Part shown: piece after piece, positions 600-27,189 of the stretch
Layout: every line of letters starts with the position of its first letter
Numbering within the stretch: the first letter of the stretch is position 1
UHGV virus genome: UHGV-0126599
DNA: 27,189 bases
Reading direction: 5' to 3' (one strand)
DNA from: a virus
Program-made: the position numbers and the translations under genes
The notes under the pieces: model-generated
The model's input: only the letters and a program-made list of their open reading frames with translations
Told to the model about the DNA's origin: nothing
The model's database searches: none

Positions 600-1148
600 T
601 CAGCTAGCTGGAAACTTTTTATACAGAGTTGAGAGCCCTACTCCATACGTTTTTGATACGCTTTGTCGTGATTCACCGGTTGCCATCCGCTCCCCCATTT
701 CCCGCCATTGCTCATCCGTAAACTTAGGCCTGCGACCACCAACTCGCCCTTTTGCCCTGGCTACGGCCAGCCCTGCTAAGGTACGTTCGCTATTAAGATC
801 AGATTCATATTGTGCTGCGGAAAGGATGTTACGAAAGTTATAGCGGCCGCTGGCTGTTTTGAGATCCACGCCATCGGTAATACTGCGGAAGTTGATACCC
901 TTTTCCTGTAACTGCTGGAACATCAACAGCGCATGCAGAACGTTGCGGCCTATCCTGTCCAGCTTCCAGACCACCAGTTCATCCCCCGGCTGCATAGTGG
1001 CGATCAGCCGTTTTAGAACCGGCCGATTCGATTTCCTCCCGCTGGCATGCTCTTCAAAAATTTTCTCACAACCCGCTGACTTGAGCGCCGTTAGTTGCAA
1101 TTCAGTGTCCTGGTGGTTTGTTGATACTCGGGCATAACCGTAAATCAT
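600..1148 (-). CDS. Serine DNA invertase (Hin/Gin/Pin/Cin family)
   Basis: Translation MIYGYARVSTNHQDTELQ...GRRPKFTDEQWREM has the hallmark resolvase/invertase N-terminus with catalytic Ser and a C-terminal HTH. ATG at 1148 is preceded by AGGAG; the upstream Met at 1256 in the ORF track is less likely. Confidence 0.9.
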   Translation of the reverse strand: MIYGYARVSTNHQDTELQLTALKSAGCEKIFEEHASGRKSNRPVLKRLIATMQPGDELVVWKLDRIGRNVLHALLMFQQLQEKGINFRSITDGVDLKTASGRYNFRNILSAAQYESDLNSERTLAGLAVARAKGRVGGRRPKFTDEQWREMGERMATGESRQSVSKTYGVGLSTLYKKFPAS

Positions 1149-1152
1149 GGGA

Positions 1153-1179
1153 TTTCTCCTGTTATGAAAACAGGAGAAA
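1153..1179. promoter_or_regulatory. Perfect 11-bp inverted repeat (TTTCTCCTGTT-ATGAA-AACAGGAGAAA) overlapping the invertase RBS
   Basis: Seen directly: 1153-1163 is the reverse complement of 1169-1179. On the invertase mRNA the AGGAG Shine-Dalgarno sits inside the stem. Confidence 0.4.
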
Positions 1180-1200
1180 CGGCGAAGCATCACCAGATTT

Positions 1201-1578
1201 TTGATGGTTATAAAAAAGGTTGGTTTGGGAGAAGCGGCGAAAAGGGATGTGGGCACAGGAGATAATCAGATACCTGATATGTCTTACTGGTCTTCACCGG
1301 CAGGCGGAATTAATTTCCCGAATGGGTTCCAGATGCGATTCGGGACTATCGCTGGTACTGGTGGAAAATTATTTTCTACGCCATTTACAAATCAGTGCTA
1401 TGGCATTGTTTTCGGACAAACATATGGAGCCAACTACTGGATGTTCAGCCCGATGTACAGAGCATCTGATCTGAGTAATACCGGTTTTGCATTCATTAAC
1501 AAAGCCTGGTCTGGCGTTCCGGGGGTAGGTTCTCAGGACGCTGGTGAATCAGTTTTTTATATTGCAGTAGGGTATTAA
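1201..1578 (+). CDS. Alternative tail-fibre C-terminal segment (S'v-like), silent in this orientation
   Basis: ORF runs through the left crossover site; after the shared GLGE residues it encodes a distinct C-terminus (...SYWSSPAGGINFPNGFQMRFG...). It has no promoter or upstream constant part in the current orientation; the fusion to the constant part would be in frame after inversion. Confidence 0.7.
   Translation: MMVIKKVGLGEAAKRDVGTGDNQIPDMSYWSSPAGGINFPNGFQMRFGTIAGTGGKLFSTPFTNQCYGIVFGQTYGANYWMFSPMYRASDLSNTGFAFINKAWSGVPGVGSQDAGESVFYIAVGY
1208..1233. repeat. Left hix/gix-like crossover site of the invertible segment
   Basis: TTATAAAAAAGGTTGGTTTGGGAGAA; its reverse complement shares the first 14 nt (TTCTCCCAAACCAA) with the site at 3005-3030. 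Confidence 0.7.
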
Positions 1579-3286: not shown

Positions 3287-3966
3287 TAAAGTAATCTCCC
3301 CCATGCGCCGTCATCAAAACCGGCGATGTATTCGTTATCCATGTCAAATCCAAAGAATTTTGTTCCTTCGGACGGTGTTTCGACCGAGGGTGTTTCAACG
3401 CCGCCAGCCCATACACCAGCAGCTTTAACGGTGAGATAACCCTGTTTGATAGCGGCTATCAGTTCGAGTGACACATCAGAAATATCAGTCTCGGGAAAAA
3501 CCCAGACCGATATCGTCATGTCCTGGTTATCGACGATCTGCATCTTCAGTCCAGAGCCTGCGGTAGCAGCGTCAAGGATGGGAGGCAGAGAGTCGTTCCG
3601 ACCATCCCAGTTGTTGATAGCGATTTTCGCTTTCAGAATGATGCGGTACGTCTCATCACTCAGCGTCGTATAGCCAGAATCAGGATCATATGGCCCTTGC
3701 CAGATGCCCTGGTCATATCCGAGCCCGTCAGTGTCCCAGCTGAAATAAACGCCGCTAATTGGCTGGCTGACTATACGACTACGCCCAATCCACAGGCCGA
3801 GGATATCGAGTTGCACGCCAACCGCCGTATCGATATCGAAGGCTGTTACAAGCCCTGACATAGTGCTGGACACATCAATCAGCGGGCGGGTGCTCAGATC
3901 TATATGGTCAAAAAAGAGTGGCTTGGTAGCGTGGTAGTTAGTGATCAGTTCGGTGTATTTGCTCAT
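3286..3966 (-). CDS. Baseplate wedge/tail protein (Mu gp48-like position)
   Basis: 226 aa ORF between the baseplate J gene and the fibre; ATG at 3966 overlaps the J stop (ATGA). Assignment by synteny. Confidence 0.6.
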   Translation of the reverse strand: MSKYTELITNYHATKPLFFDHIDLSTRPLIDVSSTMSGLVTAFDIDTAVGVQLDILGLWIGRSRIVSQPISGVYFSWDTDGLGYDQGIWQGPYDPDSGYTTLSDETYRIILKAKIAINNWDGRNDSLPPILDAATAGSGLKMQIVDNQDMTISVWVFPETDISDVSLELIAAIKQGYLTVKAAGVWAGGVETPSVETPSEGTKFFGFDMDNEYIAGFDDGAWGRLL

Positions 3967-5162
3967 GAGGTCACCGTGATAGTGACGTGACTCGCAACGC
4001 ATGACGCAGATTCGTCATAAGCAATATCGATATTTCCGCTTGCGACTGAGTCAGAGGATTTGCCGATGAGCAGCTCCTGAATGTCGTAATAGCGAGCACT
4101 GCCTCCGCTTACCACGCCAAGGTTTGCCGGGGAATAAATACGACTCAGCAGAACGTCGTCGCCAATTGTCAGGCCATTAATATAGCCGGCAACAGCCTGT
4201 TTGATCTGCTCGCCGATTTGAGAGGTATACCCGGTAAAAACTTTCAGGGTAATGGCTACGAAAATTGGCACATCGGTAGAGCGTGAAAAACTGATGACGT
4301 GAGGATTACCGTAAGTATCCGGCACCGTGACAGAAGTTGTCCCGTAGGTTGCCGTTCCCTGTCCTTTATTCCCCCTGATGGTCTGGGCTATTTCGGTAAC
4401 ATCCCCACCATCGACGATGGCGGAAATTGAGTGCGGCGGCAGCCCGTTGCTGTCTGTTGTTCCTGTGTCGTTCTCATACAACTTGTGACGTGTCACGCCA
4501 GCAACGTTAGCTATTGCACCGTCGACACCTTCAAACGATGTGATCGATGGTAGCGCGACGCTTTGCCCCTGCCGAATGCGCAGCTCTGCGTCGGTTTCGG
4601 CTGGTGAACCGACAGTAGCCGAAGCTGGGTTGGTTACCGACACCCAGCCGCGAGTCGGTGTGTTAATGGTGGTAATAGTCCCGGCCATCGCCGCAACCGA
4701 ACCGCTATTCGCACATGTGGCCGTCACCAGCACAGTACCATCAACGCCGATCGCTACACTTGCGGGAAAATTCCAGATAATGCCGTTTTTATCCCGTGCG
4801 GAGCCATTCGTGATAGTCGTGCCTGCCGTACCGGTTAACAGAAGGTCAGCAGTAGAGTTTGTCGCTACTTTTCGCGTGATCCCGTTAATTTTCACATTGC
4901 TGCTAAGCGCTGCGGCCTGCGCTGTCGTCGGTGAAAAAGAGTTGTAGATCCCGATAGCGGTGTTGTTAGCGTCATGCACCGCAAGAGCCACCAGCGCGAC
5001 CATCTGCCCGTCTTTGCTGTCTGGTTCGAGGTAGGCATCACTACCGTAAATCTGCCTGAAATAGCTGGTCAGTGTATCTAGGATTGTCTGGTAATCAGGC
5101 GCACTAATCCCCTGGGCGGTTACCGTTGCCGATAGCCCCAGCGTGTCGAGGTTCAAAGCCAT
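3963..5162 (-). CDS. Baseplate J-like protein (Mu gp47 / P2 gpJ family)
   Basis: 399 aa; size, position and sequence character fit the baseplate J family. Confidence 0.8.
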   Translation of the reverse strand: MALNLDTLGLSATVTAQGISAPDYQTILDTLTSYFRQIYGSDAYLEPDSKDGQMVALVALAVHDANNTAIGIYNSFSPTTAQAAALSSNVKINGITRKVATNSTADLLLTGTAGTTITNGSARDKNGIIWNFPASVAIGVDGTVLVTATCANSGSVAAMAGTITTINTPTRGWVSVTNPASATVGSPAETDAELRIRQGQSVALPSITSFEGVDGAIANVAGVTRHKLYENDTGTTDSNGLPPHSISAIVDGGDVTEIAQTIRGNKGQGTATYGTTSVTVPDTYGNPHVISFSRSTDVPIFVAITLKVFTGYTSQIGEQIKQAVAGYINGLTIGDDVLLSRIYSPANLGVVSGGSARYYDIQELLIGKSSDSVASGNIDIAYDESASCVASHVTITVTS

Positions 5163-5516
5163 TTATGCCTCGCTTGTTACAGTCGTCTGGCCGTAGATTG
5201 TGTCAATGGAGGAAGTGAAGGTGACGCGACGGCTGGTGCCGTCATAATTGGTATCGAAGGAAAGAATCGACAGAACGCCCGGTGTATCCTGTATGCGTTC
5301 GCGTATAGCCAGGATGTAGACATCTGATCGCTGCTTCCCAAGCACTGACTGAACATACGGCGTGCCTTCCGTCAGATCGAGAAACCACTGACCGCGCCAC
5401 AGCTCGAAACGGGTTTTTACGGCCTGGGCGACACATTCCGGACTGTCGATAAGGAAAGTATCGTCACCCTGGCCGAAAGTGTAATCGCCTTCAGTATCTT
5501 CGCGACGGTATCGCAT
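5163..5516 (-). CDS. Small baseplate protein (gp25 / gpW / Mu gp46-like)
   Basis: 117 aa, translationally coupled (TAATG) to the upstream spike gene; assigned by synteny. Confidence 0.6.
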   Translation of the reverse strand: MRYRREDTEGDYTFGQGDDTFLIDSPECVAQAVKTRFELWRGQWFLDLTEGTPYVQSVLGKQRSDVYILAIRERIQDTPGVLSILSFDTNYDGTSRRVTFTSSIDTIYGQTTVTSEA

Positions 5517-6256
5517 TATTGCGGCCCTCCGGTAGTTCCCCCGCCAGTCTGTACTCCGCCATGTTTATGCGTGGCGACACTGATACCAGAAGCTGTTACG
5601 TCATTCGTTACCGTCACCGGCCCAAGCATCGTCGCAGTACCGCCGCTTTCTCCCATTCCCTGAGACAGGTTACCGTTAATCGTTACGTTGCCGTTCAGCG
5701 TGATAGTCGGGGATGTGATTGTCGTTCCACCCTCAGCCGTAGCCGTAAGCTTGCCCGGCGTTTTAACGGTGATGTTATGCCCTGCTGCGACCTCTACGAA
5801 CGCCGAGCCATCATCGGTTCGCAGCTGCGCGGCGCTGGTACTGATACCGCTGATTTTCTGCGCTTGCGACTGCGGGCCAACGATGGCGAACGCATCAGAT
5901 AAGTCATGCTGGCGCGGGTCGACGGTCTCCTGAACGCCGCCGCTCTGCCACCAGAAATCGATGCAACGGTCGGCAAAGATCAGCAGGCACTCGTCGCCTT
6001 CTTTTACCGGAAAGGTCAGCGTGCAACCGCCGCCGCGCGGGAAGATAACCGGCACATCCACCAGCGGTTTTAATTCGGTGGAGCCATCGCCAACAATACC
6101 GCGAAGCGCTACCTCTACCGTGCAGGTAACAGTATCAGGATCGAACGACTGAATGATGCCGGGCATCGCTACGCGCATCTGGGTAGACACCGAATCGGCA
6201 ATGGCCTGCGCGGTCTGCTGCTCACCGCCGATCTGTGATTGAGTTGGAATTGGCAT
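5516..6256 (-). CDS. Baseplate spike / assembly protein V-like (Mu gp45-like)
   Basis: Gly-rich C-terminus (GGVQTGGGTTGGPQ) and OB-fold-like N-region. ATG at 6256 follows the terminator of the inserted cassette; the ORF-track extension to 6430 overlaps that terminator and the upstream gene. Confidence 0.7.
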   Translation of the reverse strand: MPIPTQSQIGGEQQTAQAIADSVSTQMRVAMPGIIQSFDPDTVTCTVEVALRGIVGDGSTELKPLVDVPVIFPRGGGCTLTFPVKEGDECLLIFADRCIDFWWQSGGVQETVDPRQHDLSDAFAIVGPQSQAQKISGISTSAAQLRTDDGSAFVEVAAGHNITVKTPGKLTATAEGGTTITSPTITLNGNVTINGNLSQGMGESGGTATMLGPVTVTNDVTASGISVATHKHGGVQTGGGTTGGPQ

Positions 6257-6261
6257 AAAAA

Positions 6262-6290
6262 CCCCATAAAAAAACCCGCTCGGTGGCGGG
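6262..6290 (-). terminator. Intrinsic terminator directly after the inserted two-gene cassette
   Basis: Minus strand reads TAA-ACCCGCCACCGAGCGGGTTTTTTT: a GC-rich 6-bp stem with a 6-nt loop and a 7-T run starting right after the stop codon. Confidence 0.6.
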
Positions 6291-6728
6291 TTATAATTTT
6301 GCTTCTGGATAACATCTACAGCGACCATCAGGACAACACTTTCCCTCCCCGGGATGACCACTTTTAGGAGGCTTACTCCACGAAAATGTTTTCCCATTAT
6401 TTTTAGCGCATTCTGCACACTCGTCACCATCCTCGCAGGAGCGCCAAATATAACGTTTAATACCCAAGCGAGATTGCCTTATCCTCTCTGCCTCGGAGTG
6501 ACGACGGCTGTTTTCGGCGAGGTGTTCAGCATGGCGCGCGTTATCCTTCTCAATTTCTTCTTTACTTCGCCGCTTCCCATTTGCTGGCTTTGATTTTTGG
6601 TAAGCAACCCGTTTATTTCGATTGTATGATTTAATAATTGCGTCTTCATTTCTGCGCTTTTTAAATTTTAAATATTTAACAAATGCAAAAGCAATTACGA
6701 ATAAAATAATAATATATGCAGGTTCCAT
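6291..6728 (-). CDS. Membrane-anchored Cys-rich protein with an F-like C-terminal motif (accessory/moron gene)
   Basis: N-terminal hydrophobic helix (PAYIIILFVIAFAFVKYL) followed by a basic tract, then YIWRSCEDGDECAECAKNNGKTFSWSKPPKSGHPGEGKCCPDGRCRCYPE. AT-rich DNA; start TAATG-coupled to the upstream gene. Confidence 0.65.
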   Translation of the reverse strand: MEPAYIIILFVIAFAFVKYLKFKKRRNEDAIIKSYNRNKRVAYQKSKPANGKRRSKEEIEKDNARHAEHLAENSRRHSEAERIRQSRLGIKRYIWRSCEDGDECAECAKNNGKTFSWSKPPKSGHPGEGKCCPDGRCRCYPEAKL

Positions 6729-7096
6729 TATTTAACCTTTACGCAATCATAAGTTGCATATTGTCTTGGTGCACCCATGCTGGCTTGCAGCCACTGAGCA
6801 TTGAGGATAGCTTTTCCGTTTCGCTTTATGTACTCAAGACCAACCCATCGCCCCGGTTGGTTTGTAGCCATACGCCAATCCATTTTTATATTGTCGTAGT
6901 CTTCTTTTTGTTTCAGAAATGTCAATTTCTGATACTCGGGCTTTGCTCCATTTATGCGAGGAAAGCCGTCATTAGTACCACTCGTTGAGAAAGTGAAATC
7001 ACCGCACTTCATATAGACTTTTCCTGCTGCATTTGCACCAGCAACAGCTGTTAAGCAAATTAAGCCAGAAAATATTCCTGAGATTATCCTTTTCAT
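6728..7096 (-). CDS. Secreted/periplasmic protein of unknown function (accessory/moron gene)
   Basis: Signal peptide MKRIISGIFSGLICLTAVAGANA with a likely AxA cleavage site; two Cys in the mature part; AT-rich; start TAATG-coupled to the hub gene stop. Confidence 0.65.
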   Translation of the reverse strand: MKRIISGIFSGLICLTAVAGANAAGKVYMKCGDFTFSTSGTNDGFPRINGAKPEYQKLTFLKQKEDYDNIKMDWRMATNQPGRWVGLEYIKRNGKAILNAQWLQASMGAPRQYATYDCVKVK

Positions 7097-8160
7097 TAGG
7101 CACCCGTTTTCATCAAAGTCGAATCATTAATCAGGGTAGAAGCTCCACGCGCAAAGCACATCAAATCCATGTACCACGCCTGACCTCTGGTGTCGCCAGT
7201 ATAGTCGATAGCTTTGACGATATAAACGCCATCTGTCGCAATGCTGGCAGCCTGTGACGTCGTGCCGGTCAGCACACGGTTGCCGTTCTCTTCTGTTTCG
7301 GTGATACGCCCGGGCGACTGTGCGATTTCGCTATTGCCGAGCGCGGCGCGGTACACCGAAGCCTGATCGAGCTGGATAAGACCATTAATACGGATGTTTG
7401 GGTTTATCAGGCACCGCACGTTTACTCCGCCGCCCATCGTTTGTTGCGGCATACCGATCAGGCCAGTATCGGCATTCAACACAATGGCTTCGTGAATATA
7501 TTTATCCTCCGGCACCATCTGGACCTGACCATCCACCAGCTGCCATGTCGCTTTGCACTGCGCAGCAATATTATCCATCACGTTACGGGTGGATGAATAA
7601 ATCGCACGGCCACGAGGAAACACGGTATCAGGAAAGTCACCGGTAATGCCCTGCGTCACGCCGAACGCGTTGAAATCCTGCATAGTCGCCCGGTGCAGGT
7701 CCGCAACGGTATAACCAGCGGCAAGCGTGGTGATGGTAGTCGCGTAGAGGAACGCTTCGTGGTTACTGATGGCCTGAATCAGCACCCAGGAATCGGTGAT
7801 GTTGTCCTTCCCGGTGACGGTGAAGCGAATATCACCGTCAAATATCAGGCCGTAGTTCTGACCGTTCACCTGCCCTACCTGGTCTGGTGAAATCTCCCGG
7901 GCGACACCAACCTGGCTCGCATCAACATCCGGCGCAATACCGTCATACCCGGCAATGATGCGAATTTTTGCAAACTCCTGCCCCAGTATCTTGTTCGTGG
8001 TATCGGTCGAAAGGTTGTAAATTTTCACGTTCGCCACTCGCGGCCAGCGTGTATCTGCCCACTCGATCTGGAACGTGACCTTAAAATCAGACAGGGAAAC
8101 GCCCTGCCCGTTCTGGTCCAACAGTTGCAGCTCAAAATGGCGCATCCAGTTAAGAGACAT
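7096..8160 (-). CDS. Baseplate hub protein (P2 gpD / Mu gp44-like)
   Basis: 354 aa; size and position between tape measure and spike match the hub family. Confidence 0.65.
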   Translation of the reverse strand: MSLNWMRHFELQLLDQNGQGVSLSDFKVTFQIEWADTRWPRVANVKIYNLSTDTTNKILGQEFAKIRIIAGYDGIAPDVDASQVGVAREISPDQVGQVNGQNYGLIFDGDIRFTVTGKDNITDSWVLIQAISNHEAFLYATTITTLAAGYTVADLHRATMQDFNAFGVTQGITGDFPDTVFPRGRAIYSSTRNVMDNIAAQCKATWQLVDGQVQMVPEDKYIHEAIVLNADTGLIGMPQQTMGGGVNVRCLINPNIRINGLIQLDQASVYRAALGNSEIAQSPGRITETEENGNRVLTGTTSQAASIATDGVYIVKAIDYTGDTRGQAWYMDLMCFARGASTLINDSTLMKTGA

Positions 8161-8162
8161 TT

Positions 8163-8468
8163 CTACTCCTGCACGAAAATGAGGTGGCTGTATGTGCCGA
8201 GGTTGGTTTTGGTGGGCTCGTCCGGTGCGCCTACATCGCAGCCAACGAGCAGCGCCCCGTTAATACCTAGTTGAGGATATTGCTCAAGAAGATTTACACC
8301 GGTTACCAGCGGCACGCCAGAAAGAAGCGGTTCGCCACTGCTATCTTGTACATCCAGAATCCAGCCAGCAGAATCACGCCAAATGACTCTCAGCGTGTAT
8401 GTTGTCTCTGCTAACTGAATGCGAAATAGCTGGTTATCCGGCGATAAAGGGATTTCAGTTACATTCAT
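8163..8468 (-). CDS. Small tail/baseplate protein
   Basis: 101 aa ORF, ATGA-coupled to the upstream gene; assigned by synteny only. Confidence 0.5.
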   Translation of the reverse strand: MNVTEIPLSPDNQLFRIQLAETTYTLRVIWRDSAGWILDVQDSSGEPLLSGVPLVTGVNLLEQYPQLGINGALLVGCDVGAPDEPTKTNLGTYSHLIFVQE

Positions 8469-9091
8469 TGGATACCTATAGAGTTACCAAGACTGGTTCC
8501 TTTTAGTCCATCAAACCACCCTGTTGACTTAATTACCGATTCATTTACTGGGGTGGTGGATTTAGTCCCGGAATTCTGCACCGCAGATGTACTAACCCCG
8601 TCCTGCATATCGGATTTATCAGCAACGGTGACATTTTTTGTATGCGTTATGATGACTTCACGCAGGGTAAGCGTGCAGTTCAGCACGTTCTCGCTGGTTT
8701 TATCGGTCGTCACCTCAATGGCTCGCACCAGCATATTGGTGTACACCCTCTTCCCGGTAACCACATCGAACGGTACGCGCTCAAGCTGCATATCCAGCAG
8801 CTTTTGGTATGTCTCCTTTGGGCTAAGCCCAGCGCTAAGACCGATTGAAGATGTATCAATGAAGTCCAGCAACGAACCGCCACCAGCGAAGCCGCATTCC
8901 ATTGTGACTTCGCTGGGGCGCTTATACGCATGATCGGCGATGAAGCCCGAAGCGCTATTCGTTGTTGGCTTCTCCACCGGGTGCTCAGTAATTTCGAGCG
9001 CATCAGAATGCTTTTCGGAGACGACCACGCTGGGAATTAATATGCCAATTCGCCGGGATTGCTGGCGAAAAATAGCGGAGAGAATATCCAT
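8465..9091 (-). CDS. Tail/baseplate protein downstream of the tape measure
   Basis: 208 aa ORF, TAATG-coupled to the tape-measure stop; assigned by synteny only. Confidence 0.5.
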   Translation of the reverse strand: MDILSAIFRQQSRRIGILIPSVVVSEKHSDALEITEHPVEKPTTNSASGFIADHAYKRPSEVTMECGFAGGGSLLDFIDTSSIGLSAGLSPKETYQKLLDMQLERVPFDVVTGKRVYTNMLVRAIEVTTDKTSENVLNCTLTLREVIITHTKNVTVADKSDMQDGVSTSAVQNSGTKSTTPVNESVIKSTGWFDGLKGTSLGNSIGIQ

Positions 9092-11094
9092 TAGCTCGGC
9101 ACCGTTCGAAGTTGTTGAGTTAGTTGTGAATTAACGTTCTTCTGCCGCTCAACTGTGATATTGGCAGCCTCACGTGGATCAGATACACCGTGAATATTAA
9201 TAACCGTTTCTTGCTGTATGTTTTGTGAAGCACCGCCACCAGCGGCCATACGAACCAATTCACTTGGGTAAGGGTTTCTCCCGTTCTCATGATGGATAAT
9301 TCCATTCATCAGAGAGGACATTACCTGCGGATCTTTAAGGTTGAGAATGGCATCAGGAGCCACACCCATCATTTTCGATAACTGAGCAATGTAAGCACCG
9401 GTATTATTTTCATTCCCCGGTGCCCACGTAGAGATTATATCGTTAAGGGTTTGCAGCGGCTTGCCTGTCGTCTTACCTTCAAAGTAGCGCATTAATTGTC
9501 GGGAAAGCGCTTTCAGGCCATCATAGGCAGTTTCAAACCGGGCGAACCTGCCGCCAGGCCTTTCGAGCGTCGCCCCAGATTGCCCACGAAAGTCGATATT
9601 ACCGGGGTTATTATTTCTAATACCTCGTGGAGCTTTAGCAGACTGGGCATGTTGGTCAGGCTCATCATCACCAAACCACCCGCGAATGGTTCTGCCTACG
9701 CTGCGCGGGTCAAATCCCAGATTCTCCTTAACCCAGTCAGCGCTTCTGTTGGCGCTATCCTCTACTGCCGGTGTGGCACTCGGTTGCCCGCTGCCCTGAT
9801 TTAGCAGCTGTTTGCCTATACTAGCGGCCTGCGCCCAGTTGCCATCTTTTATGGCATTCAGCAAATCAGCGATCATGTTCAGCATCTTGCCGAACTCACC
9901 CATTTGCGAAATGAAGTTGCTAAAATCCCACTTTAGGGACCATGACTTGGGGTCAATACCGAGCAACTTAGCCAGCGCTTTTGTCAGGTCCGTAACAGTC
10001 TTTTTCAGGTCACCAATCATTTTGACGGCCTGATCAATTTCAGTCTTCCATTTCCCCCAGTCAATCAGGCTTTTGCCACCTTCTTTCCACGTCTGGTAAT
10101 CATCCAAGAGCAGACCAAGTGCAATAATAAGCGTCGTTATCATGCCCAAGGGTGATGACATGAAAGCGGTATTTAGCAGCCGCCATGCAACCAACAGCCC
10201 ACTGAACAATGCGATAAGCTGCTGCGTGGCTGGGTTCAGCTTTTTGAACCAGGCGATCACACCCTCAACAGCTTGCCCAGTTCGCCATAACACGCGGGTA
10301 ATCGCGTCACCTGCCCAGAGAATTCCTTTGGTGATCTTCGTGATGACCGCTTCAATCTTCGGCCAGTTGTCGAGTATCTGCCTGCGGAAGTTATCAATAC
10401 TGCCAGCAAGGCCACCAGCTAGGTTAGAGCCAATCTTGTCTTTCGCCTGTCCAAGCGTCATCGTCAGATTACGCATGGAGGTCATGAAAATATTGGACTG
10501 TTTAGCCGCTGACTCAGCATTAAAACCAATACGCTTTGCCGTCAACGCGTACTCAGAACTGAGCTGCCCCATCCCTCTGCGCATCGCCATCAGCGTGTTT
10601 TCATCGATGCCAAGCATCTGCGCGTATTGTTTCGCGCGGTAATACGGCATGTTGTTGAGCTTTTGCCCAACGCCAGTAAAGATGGCCGCAGTATCACGCA
10701 TCTTTCCGCTGGCATCGCGGGTCTGGACACCAAGACGGTTCAGGAACCCTTCCGCCCCCGGATTGCTACGCATGAAGCCAGCCAACCCTTCGAGGGAGGA
10801 CATGGCCGACTCAGCGCTGGCGCCAGTTTGCGATGCGGCATAGCCCAGCGCTTTGATGCCCTGGACGCTGGCCCCCGTCCGCTGGGATGCCCAGTAAATT
10901 TTATCCAGACCATTCGCGATCTGGGTGGTAAATCCGACAATGCTCAGCGCTGCTCCTTCCACCACCGCGCCGACCTTCAGAACGTTCGCGGTAACGCCTT
11001 TCAGCACTGCTTCAAACTTATTAGCGCCAGCCTGATCGATATCGAATCCCAGCGAAACAAGGAAATCTTTAATCGTATCTGCGTTACCGCTCAT
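9091..11094 (-). CDS. Tail tape measure protein
   Basis: 667 aa with long helical segments and a membrane-like hydrophobic stretch (ALFSGLLVAWRLL...LIIALGLLL); sits after the chaperone pair. Confidence 0.85.
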   Translation of the reverse strand: MSGNADTIKDFLVSLGFDIDQAGANKFEAVLKGVTANVLKVGAVVEGAALSIVGFTTQIANGLDKIYWASQRTGASVQGIKALGYAASQTGASAESAMSSLEGLAGFMRSNPGAEGFLNRLGVQTRDASGKMRDTAAIFTGVGQKLNNMPYYRAKQYAQMLGIDENTLMAMRRGMGQLSSEYALTAKRIGFNAESAAKQSNIFMTSMRNLTMTLGQAKDKIGSNLAGGLAGSIDNFRRQILDNWPKIEAVITKITKGILWAGDAITRVLWRTGQAVEGVIAWFKKLNPATQQLIALFSGLLVAWRLLNTAFMSSPLGMITTLIIALGLLLDDYQTWKEGGKSLIDWGKWKTEIDQAVKMIGDLKKTVTDLTKALAKLLGIDPKSWSLKWDFSNFISQMGEFGKMLNMIADLLNAIKDGNWAQAASIGKQLLNQGSGQPSATPAVEDSANRSADWVKENLGFDPRSVGRTIRGWFGDDEPDQHAQSAKAPRGIRNNNPGNIDFRGQSGATLERPGGRFARFETAYDGLKALSRQLMRYFEGKTTGKPLQTLNDIISTWAPGNENNTGAYIAQLSKMMGVAPDAILNLKDPQVMSSLMNGIIHHENGRNPYPSELVRMAAGGGASQNIQQETVINIHGVSDPREAANITVERQKNVNSQLTQQLRTVPS

Positions 11095-18292: not shown

Positions 18293-19066
18293 TCAGGCGA
18301 GATAAGAATGAGGGTTGGGGAAGACGATTTCTTTGTAACAGCGGCAGTTCGGGAGCTCGCCAGCGTGACCGGTCATGCCGTCAAGCGTTGGAGGTCGGCC
18401 CCATTCGACAAACTTCCCTTCCATCTCTCGATGAGAATGCCGGACGTCGCCATCTTCGGCTGTACGCCAGATATAACCATTCGAGCCGATTGACAGCGCA
18501 CGCGCCTGATCCAGTGCACCGGTTGCGCGCCCAAGCTCAGTCCGGGCGATAAGGTTCGCTCGTGAGCGTGACACGTCACCGGAAGCAGCTATCTCTTTCG
18601 CGAATGGCTCAGCGCGGCCACCAGTTACTACAGCCTCGATGGCCTTGTTCTGAATGTCATACACCCGATCGGCGGCCTCAAGAGGCAGAGATTTGATGTA
18701 CTTAATTTGCTCGGCGACGATGGATTTCATCACCTGGCCTACCGGGGCGCGGTCGACCATGTTGCGTAGTTCTGCGCTGATGTTCCGACTGTGCTGACGC
18801 CACTGCTTTTCATTCTGGCGCGCAATGTCGGCGGTGAAGCTCTCAGCAACCTTAGTCGCCCAGGGGGTGATGATTTCGCTGTAGCGCTCCAGCGCATCCA
18901 TTATTTCGGTGACGCTATCGTTTGAACCATCGTAGCGACCATTTACGATATCCCCGACCGCCCGCGCTATCTGCCGTAGGCTCGTTCGATATCGGATCTC
19001 CGCCTGGCGGCTCTGGCGGTTTGTCGCCAAGTTCGCCGATGCCTGGCGGCGCTTCGTCTTCGGCAT
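18293..19066 (-). CDS. Head morphogenesis protein (Mu F / SPP1 gp7 family)
   Basis: C-terminal motif YIWRTAEDGDVRHSHREMEGKFVEWGRPPTLDGMTGHAGELPNCRCY is diagnostic of the family; the start overlaps the portal 3' end by about 150 nt, so the true start may be internal. Confidence 0.75.
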   Translation of the reverse strand: MPKTKRRQASANLATNRQSRQAEIRYRTSLRQIARAVGDIVNGRYDGSNDSVTEIMDALERYSEIITPWATKVAESFTADIARQNEKQWRQHSRNISAELRNMVDRAPVGQVMKSIVAEQIKYIKSLPLEAADRVYDIQNKAIEAVVTGGRAEPFAKEIAASGDVSRSRANLIARTELGRATGALDQARALSIGSNGYIWRTAEDGDVRHSHREMEGKFVEWGRPPTLDGMTGHAGELPNCRCYKEIVFPNPHSYLA

Positions 19067-22505: not shown

Positions 22506-22988
22506 TCAAACGAGTTCAGTCTCGATGGATACTTTCTTCATGAGAGCGTTGGTAAGCTCATCAAGAATGTATGCCTGTAGTTGCGGGGTAAGGCGTCGTC
22601 CGGCTAGTGCCGTTTTGAGCCTTTCAAACTCATCGAGCATATCCTGCTCGGTCGGTAAGCCAACAACGGTTACTTTCAGTTCCATAGTCTCTTCTCCCAT
22701 CCCCTGCAGGGGATATTTGATATTTATCTGCTCAAGGGGATACCCATTATCAAGCCCACCCGTAGATGAGCTTTGTAATGGAAAGCCGTTGTGAAAGTGG
22801 CTCTCAAAAACCACAGATTCGTGGTTTTTCTCCAGCTCGGCCAGGAACTCTTTTGTCTGCTTGTTTCGCAGATAGTGGTAAGGCGACTCAGCATCACTTT
22901 TGCCACTGGCTTTCCACATATCGGTGAGGCAGATCATGCCGTCTTCTCCGACACGGATTGGTTGATTGAAGAGGGTTAATGATTTCAT
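22506..22988 (-). CDS. KilA-N domain protein
   Basis: N-terminal region LTLFNQPIRVGEDGMICLTDMWKASGK...YHYLRNKQTKEFLAEL resembles the KilA-N DNA-binding domain; ATG at 22988 chosen over the TTG at 23042. Confidence 0.55.
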   Translation of the reverse strand: MKSLTLFNQPIRVGEDGMICLTDMWKASGKSDAESPYHYLRNKQTKEFLAELEKNHESVVFESHFHNGFPLQSSSTGGLDNGYPLEQINIKYPLQGMGEETMELKVTVVGLPTEQDMLDEFERLKTALAGRRLTPQLQAYILDELTNALMKKVSIETELV

Positions 22989-23134
22989 TTCGCTGATACC
23001 TTTTGGTGGTTGAGCCTGTTCTCGTAGATACGGGCAGCCCAAGAGCGGTCAGCGTTACCACTGCCCTATCTCAAGCTCTACCCCGAAAGGCTCTTGGTTG
23101 ATATGCGCACGAGAATGCGCGGTTTACTGCGGAC

Positions 23135-23161
23135 ATAAAAAAGCCCGACCGAAGTCAGGCT
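23135..23161 (-). terminator. Intrinsic terminator downstream of the Rz/Rz1 lysis genes
   Basis: Minus strand AGCCTGAC-TTCG-GTCGGGCT followed by TTTTTTAT: 8-bp stem, UUCG tetraloop, U-run. Confidence 0.7.
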
Positions 23162-23180
23162 CTGTTATTTGGGTAACGAA

Positions 23181-23654
23181 TCATTTAAGACACTGCTCTT
23201 TGATGTAGTCCTGCATGCCGCGAATCATCTTGTCAGCGGTTGCGATTCCGTCCCGGTGATCGAAATAATTCCGTCGAGCGTCTGGAGTAAGTTCGGGGGC
23301 TCCTGCATCATCCACGCCGGTGGCGGAGGTGGCTTTTGACACTCCAGGGCAGGTTGCGGCGATGCGCAGCCGTTTAGCGCCAGAATCGACATCCCGACGC
23401 AAATCGTTAATGGTTTTTTTCGCATCGGACAATTCCTTCGTATATTTGGCATCCAGCGCAGCGACATCACGCTGGCGGGTTTGCATGTCGGTGATGGTGG
23501 CGTTTGCCAGGCTGACCTGTTCAACGGCTTTATCGCGCTGGTCTCTGTAAGTGATGGCGTTGTCGCGGTAGTGGTTTACGAAGAAAGCCAGTGCGCCGAT
23601 TAACGCCAGCACCAGCAACTGCAGCCAGTAACGCTTAACCAGTGCGCTAATCAT
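23181..23654 (-). CDS. Rz: Rz-like inner-membrane spanin
   Basis: Close resemblance to lambda Rz ([10 protein letters not shown]...[20 protein letters not shown]...YIKEQC); N-terminal TM helix. Confidence 0.9.
23225..23425 (-). CDS. Rz1: Rz1-like outer-membrane lipoprotein spanin, embedded in Rz in the +1 frame
   Basis: [20 protein letters not shown] lipoprotein signal then [22 protein letters not shown], matching lambda Rz1 architecture. Confidence 0.85.
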
Positions 23655-24100
23655 GACAGGAACAGAGCTCGCTCTGCCTCCCGCCGACGTGTCAGCCCAT
23701 TCAGCACCTTCCCACCAGCTTTATTCCAGCGCAGGAACTCATCGGCTGCACCAGCGTAATCTCCGGCGTTGAGTTTTCGCAGGAGAGTCGATGTCGACAA
23801 TGACCGCGCACCGAGGTTATACGTGAACGACACCAGGGCATCGAACTGGCCTTGTGTCAGCTTCACCCTGACAACTTTCAGCACGTCATTCTCATAACCA
23901 ACAAGCCCTGTTTTCAGAAGCCTGTCAGCGGTTTGCTGGTCGATAGTCATACCGCGCTTTACTGGCTTTCCGTCAACCGGATGGGTCCAGCCATAGCCGA
24001 TGGTCCACGGCGCATCTCCCGTTCCGGGGTCGGGGTAAGCAGTCAGCCGACAACCTTCAAATTTTTTTATCAGAGCAATTCCGTCAGGACTGGTTTGCAT
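23651..24100 (-). CDS. Phage lysozyme (GH24-type endolysin)
   Basis: [17 protein letters not shown]...WTIGYG...[12 protein letters not shown] motifs; ATG at 24100 preferred over the TTG at 24127. Confidence 0.85.
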
Positions 24101-24407
24101 CGTCAACTCCCGCCTTTTTTGCTGCAAGTTTTTTAATCAGATTGCCGATCGAATCGGTGCCGATGTATCCAATAAAGACGCTGGCTATGTAGGCGAGGTT
24201 GCTGCTCAGGCCGATAAAGTCCAGAAGGTCACGAACGAACCAGGCAATCATCGCGCACATCAGCGCATCAATTAGCGTTTTTGTTACCGCGCCGCCGTTA
24301 TAGCGACCACGCAGATACGCCATGATAAAAGCCAGCATTGCACCAATACCCTGCTCCTTGGCGGCAAGTAGCGCAGCGATGAAATCTTGTTTGTATGGCA
24401 TTTTCAT
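24084..24407 (-). CDS. Class I holin with dual-start motif (lambda S-like)
   Basis: [39 protein letters not shown]... is near-collinear with lambda S107/S105, including the Met-Lys-Met dual start; GGAGGTGA RBS. The ORF-track N-terminal extension is rejected. Confidence 0.9.
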
Positions 24408-24513
24408 AGGCCTCACCTCCGATTTTCCGGATGGTGCTGTGTGTGTTTGTAGGGGAAAGGCCGTCAGACTCTGATTGCTACATGGCATCTGAAAATGATA
24501 TCTGCGGCCTGCA

Positions 24514-24539
24514 ATAAAAAAGCCCACGGCGCGGTGGGC
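24514..24539 (-). terminator. Intrinsic terminator about 100 nt upstream of the holin start
   Basis: Minus strand GCCCAC-CGCGCC-GTGGGC followed by TTTTTTATT. Confidence 0.65.
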
Positions 24540-24794
24540 AATAGAGGGTAGTGCGTTGAGCTTTTGCTCTTATGGTCCTGGTAGGTATTTGGTGTGTGGT
24601 GACCGGTGCTGTGTTTTCCGGCATGTAAATGAACTACCCGTCGTCGCCATGGTGAGCCTTTACCTCACCATCTAGCTGATAAGTTAGCGCATCAGCCTGC
24701 GCATTCACCACAACGATAATTGCACTGCGCCTGTTTCGGTTAGCGTAACGGGATTAACCGGTCACCCCAATGCAATTATCTGTTGTGCAGATAC

Positions 24795-24824
24795 AAAAAA
24801 AGCCCCGAGCTATTAACTCAGGGC
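24795..24824 (-). terminator. Intrinsic terminator downstream of the late promoter (tR'-like)
   Basis: Minus strand GCCCTGAG-TTAATAG-CTCGGGGC followed by TTTTTTT, about 100 nt after the Q stop codon. Confidence 0.7.
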
Positions 24825-24858
24825 CATCGAATGAATGCACTACTCCATCATTGATTTC

Positions 24859-24887
24859 AGATTAAACAAAAATCGCCACTTTGTAAA
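24859..24887 (-). promoter_or_regulatory. Candidate Q-dependent late promoter (PR'-like)
   Basis: Minus strand TTTACA - 17 nt - TAATCT between the Q stop and the first terminator; hexamers are imperfect and the call is positional. Confidence 0.3.
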
Positions 24888-24929
24888 GTGTAGTTTTCTA
24901 GATAAATCCTATTTCATAGAAAACATTCA

Positions 24930-25694
24930 CTATCGCGTGACTTTGTTCAACATCTGGTTTGCGTACTCTTCCTGCTTGATGCACTCACCTACCAGACTTT
25001 CGAAAAAATCCTTGTAAGACCTGCGCCACGTGGTTTCAGGTATATCTATCACCGTTACGCAGATGTATTTACGGACGCTATCAGGTAGCAATCTGGCATA
25101 ACCACGCCCATTGCAGCGCGTACAGGTTTTATATGCAGGAACGCCGCGCTGTAGAATAGTTTTCTCTTTGTCTAATACTGTTCCTTTGCCATTGCACTGG
25201 CATGCGTTGGTCAGAGCACCCTTCCCTTTGCATTTGTGGCAAAGCACCTTAACCATCTCTCTTTTTTCGCTAAGGTGTGGCTGTCCGATATGCTTCATCG
25301 TCATTACTTCAGCTTCGACAAACTTATTTCCATTGCAGCAGTCGCACGTTCTGGTACTGGCGGCGCTCCGGGAGTAATCAGCAAAGGCGAAAGTTGCGAG
25401 AACTTGCATTACCTTTGGCTTAACATCGCTCTCAAGCTTGCGTAAGGCGGCAACCTTATCGCAGTGCTCAATTGCATATTTGGTCAGCAGGTCAATTGCT
25501 CGCTCGCGATCGTAATCGCTGATATCCATCTTACCGAGGAATGCACTGAACCCGAGATCAGCCCGGCTCTGTGTCATTCCGATCGCCGCCATAATGTCAG
25601 TGCCGGTTAATGAGTCAGATGCGGTTGCACGTGGAGCGTCGCTAATCATCGTTGACTTCGCGAAGTGGTATTTCACTGTGTTTTCGAGATTCAT
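24930..25694 (-). CDS. Late-gene antitermination protein Q
   Basis: 254 aa with Cys clusters (CDCCNGNKF..., CHKCKGKGALTNACQCNGKG, CTRCNGRG) typical of zinc-binding Q antiterminators; located just upstream of the lysis cassette; AGGAG RBS. Confidence 0.8.
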   Translation of the reverse strand: MNLENTVKYHFAKSTMISDAPRATASDSLTGTDIMAAIGMTQSRADLGFSAFLGKMDISDYDRERAIDLLTKYAIEHCDKVAALRKLESDVKPKVMQVLATFAFADYSRSAASTRTCDCCNGNKFVEAEVMTMKHIGQPHLSEKREMVKVLCHKCKGKGALTNACQCNGKGTVLDKEKTILQRGVPAYKTCTRCNGRGYARLLPDSVRKYICVTVIDIPETTWRRSYKDFFESLVGECIKQEEYANQMLNKVTR

Positions 25695-25837
25695 GCTTCT
25701 GCTCCTGATGGTTTATAGCGGCTGATGTAATTGCGTAAAATTCGGTAGTCCGTAGCAAATGAACCCGGGTGACGATAGATGCGTAACCGAGTCCATCGCA
25801 GACGAAGATGATCAGCAAAGTAGGATTCGAATGTCAT
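25691..25837 (-). CDS. ylcG: Small YlcG-like protein (48 aa)
   Basis: Hand-translated ORF, not in the track: [52 protein letters not shown] overlaps at both ends (rusA stop and Q start), same position as ylcG in DLP12-type prophages. Confidence 0.5.
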
Positions 25838-26196
25838 GCGGACTCCAGTTCAGTAATGGTCAGTTCAAGTCTGCCGCCTTTGACGACCGGCATTCTCTTC
25901 ACGCTGTAGTAGTCGACTTGTTGGTCATCGAGCCAGAACCCGGATTTCGTCAGGGCGTCGAACGCGGCCTTTTGCAGATTGTCCAGGTCGCGGCGGCGGC
26001 GATCCGGCATATGGCACTCAATGCGTATTTTCACGGGTGTAGCCAGGCCGATATCCAGCATTGAGTCTTTGATGATTCTGGCGACACTGTCGCGGTACGC
26101 CTGCCCCTCTGTGCTGATGTGCGTGCGCCCGCGATTATGGCGGTAGTAGCGGTTATTGCTCGGCGGCCAGGGCAATGTGATGTTGTAAGTATTCAT
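25834..26196 (-). CDS. rusA: RusA Holliday-junction resolvase
   Basis: 120 aa from ATG at 26196: [18 protein letters not shown]...[25 protein letters not shown] matches RusA, including the catalytic Asp region. Confidence 0.9.
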
Positions 26197-26483
26197 GCCT
26201 TGATTACCCCCTCTTTCAGCCAGATAACCTGCGTTCTCGCCATACCTTCCAGCGCGCATTCTTTAGCATACTCAGCATCGACAAAATGTGTACGGCGGTC
26301 GATCTCGTCGTGACAGGCAGAGCATGCAATGGTGGCAATAAGGTCTGGCGGTTTAATACCGGTGCCGCACAATCCAGCCAGCCGGATATGTGCCAGTACA
26401 GACGTTTCAGGATTGCCATTACATACGCCAGGGATTCTTACCTGGCATTCCCGACCACGCGCTGCTTTTCTCAAATCAGCCAT
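26193..26483 (-). CDS. ybcO: YbcO-like protein (DUF1364, putative nuclease)
   Basis: [34 protein letters not shown]...[11 protein letters not shown] closely resembles E. coli DLP12 YbcO as I recall it. Confidence 0.85.
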
Positions 26484-26646
26484 GTGACCTCCGCGCTTTC
26501 AGGCGATCCCATTTCACCTGGGTCAGTCGCGCGGTGTAGCCGAGCAGTGATGGGATTTCGGATGGCTTGAGTTCAGGCTTGCGCTTAGTGCGTGTCCGGA
26601 CCCGGTAGATTTCGTTGGTGATGATGCGAGCGAGAGGGCTAGCCAT
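26476..26646 (-). CDS. ninE: NinE-like small protein (56 aa)
   Basis: Hand-translated ORF, not in the track: [61 protein letters not shown]-coupled to ninB and overlapping the ybcO start. Confidence 0.55.
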   Translation of the reverse strand: MASPLARIITNEIYRVRTRTKRKPELKPSEIPSLLGYTARLTQVKWDRLKARRSHG

Positions 26647-27083
26647 TACGCAACCCTCCCGAAGTAATCACCTGAGTAGCGAACTTCACGGAGTTGCACG
26701 CCGTTTTGCACAGCAAATGCCTGGCTGTATTCGATGAGACTGGTCATGCGACGGATGCCCATCTTCGCAGTGCTTTCCCGGATGGCGCAGAACTCCCCTT
26801 CCAGACCCGGCACCACTTCACCAGGCTTACCGGTGGCAATGGCATGGCCTGAGACATACAGGACTTTCCATGAAGCGAGGTCGCGCGACTTGCCAGCCCA
26901 TTGCAATTGCTTCGCTGTATCGCCACAGAGAGCGTGGAAGAGGTCGTTTTGGGCGAGAGTGCGGTCAGCCTCAGAAAACTTCACCACGAGCGGCAGAGCG
27001 TCGTTAACGGGCAGCTTCCTGATGTAGTCGATGAGGTTATCGCGAACGCGTTCGTCGCGGAGGTAGAAAACAGGCTGTTTCAT
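26646..27083 (-). CDS. ninB: NinB recombination protein (Orf family)
   Basis: MKQPVFYLRDERVRDNLIDYIRKLPVNDALPLVVKFSEADRTLAQNDLFHALCGD...WKVLY resembles lambda NinB; ATG at 27083 with GGAGGT RBS; the ORF-track start at 27131 is rejected. Confidence 0.85.
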   Translation of the reverse strand: MKQPVFYLRDERVRDNLIDYIRKLPVNDALPLVVKFSEADRTLAQNDLFHALCGDTAKQLQWAGKSRDLASWKVLYVSGHAIATGKPGEVVPGLEGEFCAIRESTAKMGIRRMTSLIEYSQAFAVQNGVQLREVRYSGDYFGRVA

Positions 27084-27189
27084 ACGCCACCTCCGAGAGG
27101 TAACGCAGAATGCAGAAAATCGCAGGTGCATTTCTGCATCTGTGACAAGGTGAGAAGTTCATATTGTGGTCGCATTTAAGTCCCCTTAA

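Follow-up and report, generated by a model that had tools for sequence, protein, structure and literature searches.

We analysed a 27,189-nt stretch of viral DNA, the UHGV virus genome UHGV-0126599 (the window, below, means this whole stretch), and in it the open reading frame (ORF) ORF145, which encodes a small membrane-anchored protein whose Cys-rich C-terminal part is related to the MuF domain of phage head morphogenesis proteins; we refer to it and its relatives as mini-MuF proteins. ORF145 is also an annotated coding sequence in E. coli 2021CK-01361. The parts of the gene and protein on which the argument rests are the following:

6291..6728, minus strand: ORF145, membrane-anchored mini-MuF protein of 145 amino acids (aa), stop codon within the span (ORF list)
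6666..6719, minus strand: N-terminal transmembrane (TM) helix, aa 4-21, AYIIILFVIAFAFVKYLK (hydropathy 2.57 over 17 aa; helix at residues 3-34 in the AlphaFold2 (AF2) model)
6543..6578, minus strand: conserved basic motif, aa 51-62, GKRRSKEEIEKD, with the family signature P-x-RRR-S/T-x-EE-x-x-A-D (alignments)
6300..6539, minus strand: region homologous to MuF, aa 64-143, consisting of a helix and then the Cys-rich mini-MuF core (Pfam, phrog_324, BLASTP and Foldseek against BFVD)
6408..6419, minus strand: CxxC (C104, C107) in place of the canonical MuF R-x-x-H (invariant in alignments; codons read)
6312..6320, minus strand: C-R-C (C137, C139), common to canonical MuF, where it reads NCRC (invariant in alignments; codons read)

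The AF2 model of ORF145 (predicted local distance difference test score, pLDDT, 83) consists of the helix at residues 3-34, a second helix at residues 56-88 and a small C-terminal domain. A first-pass annotation, made from the letters of the window without database searches, had described the protein as a domain fused to a membrane anchor, and this part of it holds: the TM helix of aa 4-21 is preceded by MEP, which carries no positive charge, and is followed by KFKKRR. Because positive charges lie C-terminal to the helix and homologues that lack a TM helix also lack a signal peptide, the protein is predicted from the positive-inside rule to be oriented N-out/C-in, and its domain should be cytoplasmic. 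The ratio of nonsynonymous to synonymous substitution rates (dN/dS) of ORF145 was 0.14 against its closest relative, the copy in E. coli 2021CK-01361, and values of 0.04-0.07 were obtained among the Klebsiella/Enterobacter-type homologues; mini-MuF genes are under strong purifying selection. The fraction of guanine plus cytosine (GC) within ORF145 was ~0.33-0.39 over the anchor and linker versus ~0.48-0.50 over the Cys-rich domain, a contrast that may stem from amino-acid composition (Lys/Asn/Ile-rich versus Gly/Cys/Pro-rich).

Homology was confirmed between the last ~75 aa of ORF145 and the C-terminal half of the MuF domain in the F-like head protein (F) encoded in the same window:

18293..19066, minus strand: resident MuF (F-like head morphogenesis) protein, 257 aa; Pfam MuF domain at aa 137-243 (18338-18658)

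That the Cys-rich end aligns with the C-terminus of F had been stated in the first-pass annotation, whose two ORFs and quoted sequences are indeed present, and the alignment withstood a significance estimate. BLASTP paired ORF145 aa 71-142 with F aa 176-246 (27/76 identities, 36%; E = 5e-11), and the Smith-Waterman score of the pair was 111, far above the 29.9 ± 4.5 obtained with shuffled ORF145 (n = 2000; z = 18), no shuffle reaching 111. When every six-frame ORF of 90 aa or more in the window was compared with ORF145, F alone matched apart from ORF145 itself (score 102; next best 35). The Pfam profile Phage_Mu_F likewise matched ORF145 (aa 64-137, E 5.7e-5, 24.3 bits), but the match covered just positions 40-109 of the 112 in the profile, its second half, and stayed below the gathering cut-off of 29.6, whereas F scored 66.1 bits over profile positions 2-109. 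TIGR01641 (SPP1 gp7) gave ORF145 20.3 bits, under its cut-off of 39.65. Some relatives of ORF145 exceed the curated cut-off (P0032 scores 46 bits), and many bear a precomputed PF04233 match. The best PHROG for both proteins was phrog_324, 'head morphogenesis' (7e-11 for ORF145, aa 73-143; 1.7e-89 for F). Predicted structure agreed: a Foldseek search of BFVD with the AF2 model of ORF145 matched its last ~90 residues to viral 'minor capsid / head morphogenesis' proteins with a probability of 1.00 and E values down to 3e-5; no solved MuF structure exists. Pfam and NCBIfam scans of ORF145 matched no unrelated zinc-ribbon family. At the level of residues, the MuF core elements W, D, GK, PP, GH-G and CRC are all present in ORF145, and RxxH has become CxxC, such that two invariant Cys of ORF145 align with the R and H of the MuF RxxH and the other two are the CxC of MuF.

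The true start of the window's F is uncertain, because its maximal ORF, which starts at 19066, shares 152 nt with the portal ORF, which ends at 18915, because the F protein of Klebsiella phage Mulock has just 182 aa and begins near residue 76 of the window's F, and because an internal Met lies at aa 56 (nt 18901), just past the portal stop.

ORF145 was shown to belong to a widespread, uncharacterised family of small (~80-200 aa) proteins carrying a derived C-terminal half of the MuF domain. When 1.84 billion representative proteins were searched exhaustively with a profile of the ORF145 family, 3403 representatives had E <= 1e-3, of which 208 had E <= 1e-10, and the 150 best of these, together with six earlier homologues, formed a set of 156 proteins. 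The arrangement CxxC...CxC was present in 121 of the 156, nearly all of them 63-200 aa long, and 23 canonical RxxH...CRC proteins (156-517 aa, most 200-350) first appeared in the search around E ~1e-14. An N-terminal TM helix was found in 30 of the 121 Cys-type proteins, a C-terminal one in 3 and none in 88. Many of the TM-less members open with a short hydrophobic motif, MxWLxxLF, which may form an amphipathic membrane-binding helix.

Members of the family share a layout of basic motif, helix and Cys-rich core, the regular expression for the basic motif being found in 54 of 148 short members. The core reads G-x-x-x-Y-x-W-R-x-x-x-D-x-x-x-C-x-x-C-x-x-N-x-G-K-x-F-x-W-x-x-P-P-x-x-G-H-P-G-x-x-x-C(C)-x-x-G-x-C-R-C, with a short Cys-containing insertion before the shared CRC that is extra relative to MuF. 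Exactly four Cys are invariant over 8 close and 60 diverged sequences (C104, C107, C137 and C139 in ORF145 numbering), while the other Cys vary, and the natural reading of four invariant Cys arranged in two pairs is a putative Cys4 structural zinc site. In databases, members of the family are labelled 'phage minor head protein', 'gpF-like domain' or 'hypothetical'.

The replacement of RxxH by Cys, which the first-pass annotation had described for the VRHSH segment of F, is real but not unique to these small proteins. Full-length MuF head proteins of ~300 aa with CxxC for RxxH occur on contigs of metagenome-assembled genomes of Calditrichota, Schekmanbacteria and others (L010-L027), where the string reads W-x-T-x-G-D-E-R-T-C-P-E-C...C-R-C, and a genome scan with a tight alignment of 8 sequences returned mostly such full-length CxxC-type MuF proteins and few mini-MuFs. 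Because full-length CxxC head proteins exist, the switch between RxxH and CxxC lies within the range of the MuF family, which suggests that this position is a metal or structural site alternating between two solutions in real head proteins. Two metagenomic proteins of 332 aa (P0047 and P0178) combine DUF4236, a TM2 membrane domain and a mini-MuF in one polypeptide, and these fusions link the mini-MuF to DUF4236, which is also an alternative occupant (L003) of the genomic slot described next.

ORF145 is the second gene of a cassette inserted between the baseplate hub and baseplate spike V genes, the first gene being ORF122, which encodes a secreted protein:

7096..8160, minus strand: baseplate hub gene (E217_GP41-like), upstream flank
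7198..7226, minus strand: candidate sigma-70-like promoter TTTATA-17-TATACT, ~100 nt upstream of ORF122 and inside the hub gene
6728..7096, minus strand: ORF122, secreted protein of 122 aa with a cleavable signal peptide (...AGANA/AGK) and two conserved Cys (phrog_3443, E 1.8e-41)
6263..6292, minus strand: intrinsic-terminator-like hairpin AACCCGCCACCGAGCGGGTT followed by TTTTTTT, adjoining the ORF145 stop and 7 nt short of the spike start (terminator scan)
5516..6256, minus strand: baseplate spike (assembly protein V) gene, downstream flank, with the start as annotated in relatives

The start of ORF122 overlaps the stop of the hub gene and the start of ORF145 overlaps the stop of ORF122. The GC fraction was 0.33-0.41 over the cassette (6500-7100) versus 0.52-0.62 in the flanking baseplate genes. 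A site similar to the candidate promoter, ATTACA-17-TATACT, was found at the same relative position in two related loci (L007 and L030). Read mechanically, the spike ORF has 304 aa and extends to 6430, through the terminator and 140 nt into ORF145; the start used in relatives falls at 6256 (MPIPTQSQ...). Mature ORF122 would have ~95 aa, with its two Cys in the context CGDF...YDC-KVK. ORF122 had no match in Pfam, NCBIfam or PADLOC, and its sole match, phrog_3443, is of unknown function. It is more constant in the slot than ORF145 and could be a periplasmic exclusion factor.

The same gene order (hub, ORF122-like gene, mini-MuF gene, spike) was found in at least 15 prophage or viral loci of E. 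coli, Salmonella, Klebsiella and relatives, in which identity to the window was 44-83% for hub, plug, spike and J, 31-48% for ORF122 and 44-61% for ORF145. In 15 of 16 related loci the mini-MuF gene is preceded by an ORF122 homologue, the secreted protein having 110-122 aa in the enterobacterial prophages, and the isolated Klebsiella phage Mulock carries the pair as genes 020 and 021, both annotated 'hypothetical'. A GC-rich hairpin with a T-run follows the mini-MuF gene in 11 of the 13 related prophage loci compared (window excluded), the sequence of the hairpin varying.

Among 5426 complete E. coli genomes the complete cassette was present in one, and 41 others shared parts of it, chiefly the flanks and the ORF122-like gene. 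In E. coli prophages with flanks 86-98% identical, the ORF122-like gene was retained and the second gene was swapped, at least six alternative second genes being seen in the slot, whose second place is shared out among at least seven unrelated small genes. The replacements were a 53-aa ORF, a 181-aa Cys-rich protein, secreted proteins of 106 and 128 aa and, on the opposite strand, a DUF4236 protein with a C-terminal TM helix and an EACC1-like membrane protein (Pfam score exactly at threshold). The terminator ahead of the spike gene was kept in all six cargo variants examined. The hub-to-spike slot (5516-8160 in the window; L002-L004 and L055-L057 elsewhere) is thus a cargo hotspot, mostly for envelope proteins.

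Mini-MuF genes also occur in other settings. In another E217-type tail cluster (L046) the gene stands beside one for an 86-aa multi-TM protein, and the tail cluster of L051, also metagenomic and of the E217 type, has two separate insertions antisense to the tail genes (3746-4534 and 8397-9097): a mini-MuF gene with a gene for a secreted 128-aa protein and, next to these, a HigB-like toxin/helix-turn-helix pair. Solitary copies had an integrase and a PIN gene, HigB, or resolvases and transposases in their vicinity; further copies lie among ordinary chromosomal genes, one solitary copy being near a sigma-70-family gene. Small secreted proteins are frequent neighbours of mini-MuF genes.

The window as a whole is a lambdoid prophage. 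On the minus strand it carries NinB, an HNH endonuclease, RusA, a Q-like antiterminator, holin, endolysin and Rz, and after Rz come terminase, portal, F, capsid and a contractile-tail module of the E217/PhiTE type, with a DNA invertase last. The features that bear on transcription of the late genes are these:

24930..25694, minus strand: Q-like antiterminator of the late operon (phrog_127, E 1.4e-102), upstream of the lysis, terminase, portal, F and tail genes
23181-24527: lysis genes

The lambdoid control end of the window (NinB, HNH, RusA, Q, holin, endolysin, Rz) spans 22506-27131, and the phage joins these genes to a head of the Mu-F type and a contractile tail of the E217/PhiTE type. The DNA invertase gene (phrog_125; 600-1256, minus strand) adjoins the tail-fibre region, which suggests an invertible host-range segment.

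A moron in the sense of Juhala and Hendrix has its own terminator and a promoter active in the repressed prophage, deviates in composition and is variably present among close phages. The cassette shows a terminator, a deviant GC content and replacement among closely related prophages. Q-modified polymerase of lambdoid phages ignores intrinsic terminators, and because the Q antiterminator acts upstream of the late genes, a terminator amid baseplate genes can be tolerated; its conservation then makes sense if it ends the transcript of unmodified polymerase, that is, in the lysogen. Such a layout is the classical one of a moron, with HK97 gp15 as prototype. That mini-MuF genes are independent of late genes (the antisense copy in L051 and the solitary copies near mobile-element genes) also supports the moron reading.

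Tentatively, then, the likeliest function of ORF145 would be that of a membrane-tethered zinc module expressed in the lysogen and interfering with MuF-type phages. In the lysogen, the cassette would be transcribed by unmodified RNA polymerase, which would halt at the cassette's own terminator, and during lytic growth Q-modified polymerase would pass through it. The N-out/C-in anchor would set a zinc-stabilised MuF-like module at the cytoplasmic face of the inner membrane, where it could bind the partners of MuF in MuF-type phages (the portal oligomer, or the DNA end and ejected head proteins, or all of these); superinfecting or assembling phages of this type would thereby be excluded or poisoned, with the secreted partner ORF122 acting in the periplasm. 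The first-pass annotation had offered either a decoy that titrates a partner of F-like proteins, for example against superinfecting phages, or a membrane-tethered zinc ribbon. The decoy idea is plausible, and a membrane-tethered zinc module would fit the four invariant Cys. In its more specific form, a new class of anti-phage structural decoy that travels on prophage morons and genomic islands, often beside a small secreted partner, that catches the portal, the ejected MuF or the DNA end and so stops entry or head assembly, and that spares its carrier by being tuned to foreign F/portal pairs, we consider the decoy unlikely.

Several observations weigh against exclusion by a lysogen-expressed module. 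The promoter is only a candidate: sigma-70-like sites in the region are no more numerous than in shuffles, and TATACT overlaps the codons of a conserved D-Y-T of the hub. The start/stop overlaps couple translation, so that ORF122 and ORF145 would also be made with the late proteins. The pair is fixed at one slot across deep divergence of the baseplate proteins, with identities of just 50-80%, and in this looks more like a lineage-conserved gene than a recent addition. PADLOC gave no match for ORF145, ORF122, P0022 or P0167, and on the alternative cargo it gave only a marginal match to SngB (E 0.0025; cargo of L055). Moreover, a decoy that binds portals might damage its own carrier phage as well, and both portal binding by half a MuF domain and zinc binding are predicted properties.

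The main rival of the exclusion reading is that ORF145 is a late accessory of the phage's own cycle, either a membrane tether for the portal or procapsid or a small membrane-inserting protein for tail assembly or DNA injection. This is possible, if on balance doubtful. Late translation through coupling to the hub gene, the synteny of hub, secreted protein, mini-MuF and spike across at least 15 diverged loci (Mulock included), the homology of the domain to a portal-binding domain and the strong purifying selection on the gene would all be expected of such a protein, and there is an analogy in gp40, which assists the T4 portal at the membrane. The gene is dispensable, however, unrelated genes standing in its place in near-identical prophages; the L051 copy is antisense to the tail genes, solitary chromosomal copies occur without phage genes, and a conserved terminator separates the mini-MuF gene from the spike gene. 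A role in lysis (as holin or spanin) was ruled out for ORF145, since genes for holin, endolysin and Rz already stand beside Q in the window and the predicted topology and Cys4 domain of ORF145 are unlike those of a spanin.

Improbable, in our estimate, is a host-directed role in lysogenic conversion, in which the tethered zinc module would act like a membrane-bound anti-sigma factor and sequester or regulate a cytoplasmic protein of the host, with a periplasmic partner. A membrane anchor joined to a predicted cytoplasmic Cys4 domain, the small secreted proteins that often adjoin mini-MuF genes, the solitary copy near a sigma-70-family gene and the moron architecture are compatible with this role, but the sole detectable homology of ORF145 is to a phage head protein, the strongest association of the family is with phage tail clusters, and no sequence match to anti-sigma or other regulatory zinc families was found in Pfam or NCBIfam. 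Membership in an unrelated zinc-ribbon, DksA/TraR or anti-sigma family was rejected on the same scans.

The first-pass annotation had explained the resemblance to F by an intragenomic duplication, with the C-terminus of ORF145 a diverged copy of the phage's own head protein fused to a membrane anchor, and this explanation is very improbable. ORF145 and F are homologous, with the common strings YIWR, EDGD, GK-F-W, PP, GH-G and CRCY, and phrog_324 is the best PHROG for both. When the relatives of ORF145 aa 70-145 were ranked by local BLASTP, however, the resident F came 154th of 156 (43 bits, 38% identity), behind 23 unrelated full-length MuF proteins with 55-70 bits (best P0102, 52% identity), which also belong to phrog_324. 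ORF145 and F use the same codon at 11 of 24 identical aligned residues, two of these being Trp, and their nucleotide identity is 51%; codons at identical residues are thus randomised and bear no trace of recent copying, which also rules out gene conversion with the resident F. In Mulock, which has both genes, the score of the mini protein is 112 with its own F and 108 with the window's F, so that the own F is not consistently preferred. Furthermore, the architecture of anchor, linker and domain spans many lineages, including non-phage ones, and strings like 'EDGD' are frequent across the mini-MuF family. Because F ranks 154th, the codons differ, the Mulock scores are nearly equal and the family is old, wide and extends beyond phages, the claim of an intragenomic duplication is unsupported; the relation between ORF145 and F is one of old paralogy within the Mu-type F family and not of duplication in this phage.

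Least credible of all is that ORF145 is a decaying, functionless remnant of a truncated F gene, as the coverage of half of the MuF profile and the Pfam score under the gathering threshold might suggest, since dN/dS is 0.04-0.14, Cys and Gly positions are invariant over at least 60 diverged sequences, the full-length architecture is conserved and the AF2 model is confident; gene decay is ruled out by these selection and conservation data.

MuF/gp7 proteins are among the commonest components of phage heads, and to our knowledge no use of the MuF domain other than capsid targeting has been known so far. In the mini-MuF proteins, half of this domain has become a family in its own right, which is widespread, strongly conserved and membrane-associated and resides in moron slots and genomic islands. 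Should interference with MuF-type phages prove to be the role of the family, it would add a new case of defence through imitation of a virion component and would help to find what the conserved MuF core binds. Regardless of any role in defence, the alternation of Cys4 and RxxH hints at a site in MuF that is metal-binding or structural, the space between hub and spike is a well-delimited hotspot for cargo genes, and mini-MuF genes are wrongly given the automatic label 'head protein'.

Four known systems invite comparison. The exclusion proteins Imm and Sp of T4 are a phage-encoded membrane protein and a phage-encoded periplasm-exposed protein, whose genes imm and sp are not adjacent. ORF145 and ORF122 likewise pair a membrane protein with a periplasm-exposed one, but they are not known to be homologous to Imm or Sp and, unlike imm and sp, are adjacent genes; the likeness is an analogy only.

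In the MuF polymorphic toxins (Jamet et al. 2017, PMC5576092) the MuF domain is also reused as a module joined to other parts. There, however, a complete MuF domain takes a C-terminal toxin into the capsid (PMC5576092), whereas ORF145 has half of the domain, at the C-terminus of a membrane anchor, and no toxin domain. Cysteine, zinc or transmembrane variants are not mentioned in that paper (PMC5576092), and in the literature on MuF variants, MuF toxins and polyvalent proteins we found no Cys-rich, truncated or membrane-anchored MuF, although this coverage is incomplete and novelty is unproven.

To the Phage_Mu_F/SPP1 gp7 family itself (PF04233, TIGR01641, phrog_324), whose SPP1 member attaches firmly to the portal oligomer, enters the capsid in few copies, binds DNA and has a part in starting infection (PMC6316719), the ~70-aa C-terminus of ORF145 is homologous in sequence and predicted fold, sharing G-x-x-x-Y-x-W, D, G-K-x-F-x-W, PP, GHxG and CRC. 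It differs in lacking the first half of the domain (its match covers profile positions 40-109 of 112) and in having CxxC for RxxH, an extra Cys-containing insertion and a membrane anchor; it has 145 aa versus ~250-500, and mini-MuF genes lie in the baseplate cluster or in islands, whereas the post-portal position is held by the 257-aa F. ORF145 is MuF by descent but falls outside curated membership by its score, its half profile, its gene position and its anchor; it also has CxxC at the site of RxxH, a swap that some full-length MuF proteins show too.

The fourth is gp15 of HK97, an inner-membrane superinfection-exclusion protein encoded by a moron with promoter and terminator within the tail operon (PMC3594210). 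It has no sequence similarity to ORF145, being YebO-like and without a MuF or Cys-rich domain, and its promoter and exclusion phenotype have been shown, whereas for ORF145 the promoter is a candidate and exclusion a proposal. In architecture the two nevertheless resemble each other: both are small proteins with an N-terminal membrane segment, encoded in a lambdoid late tail cluster by genes of deviant GC content with their own terminator, and in both cases homologues also occur outside prophages (PMC3594210 for gp15).

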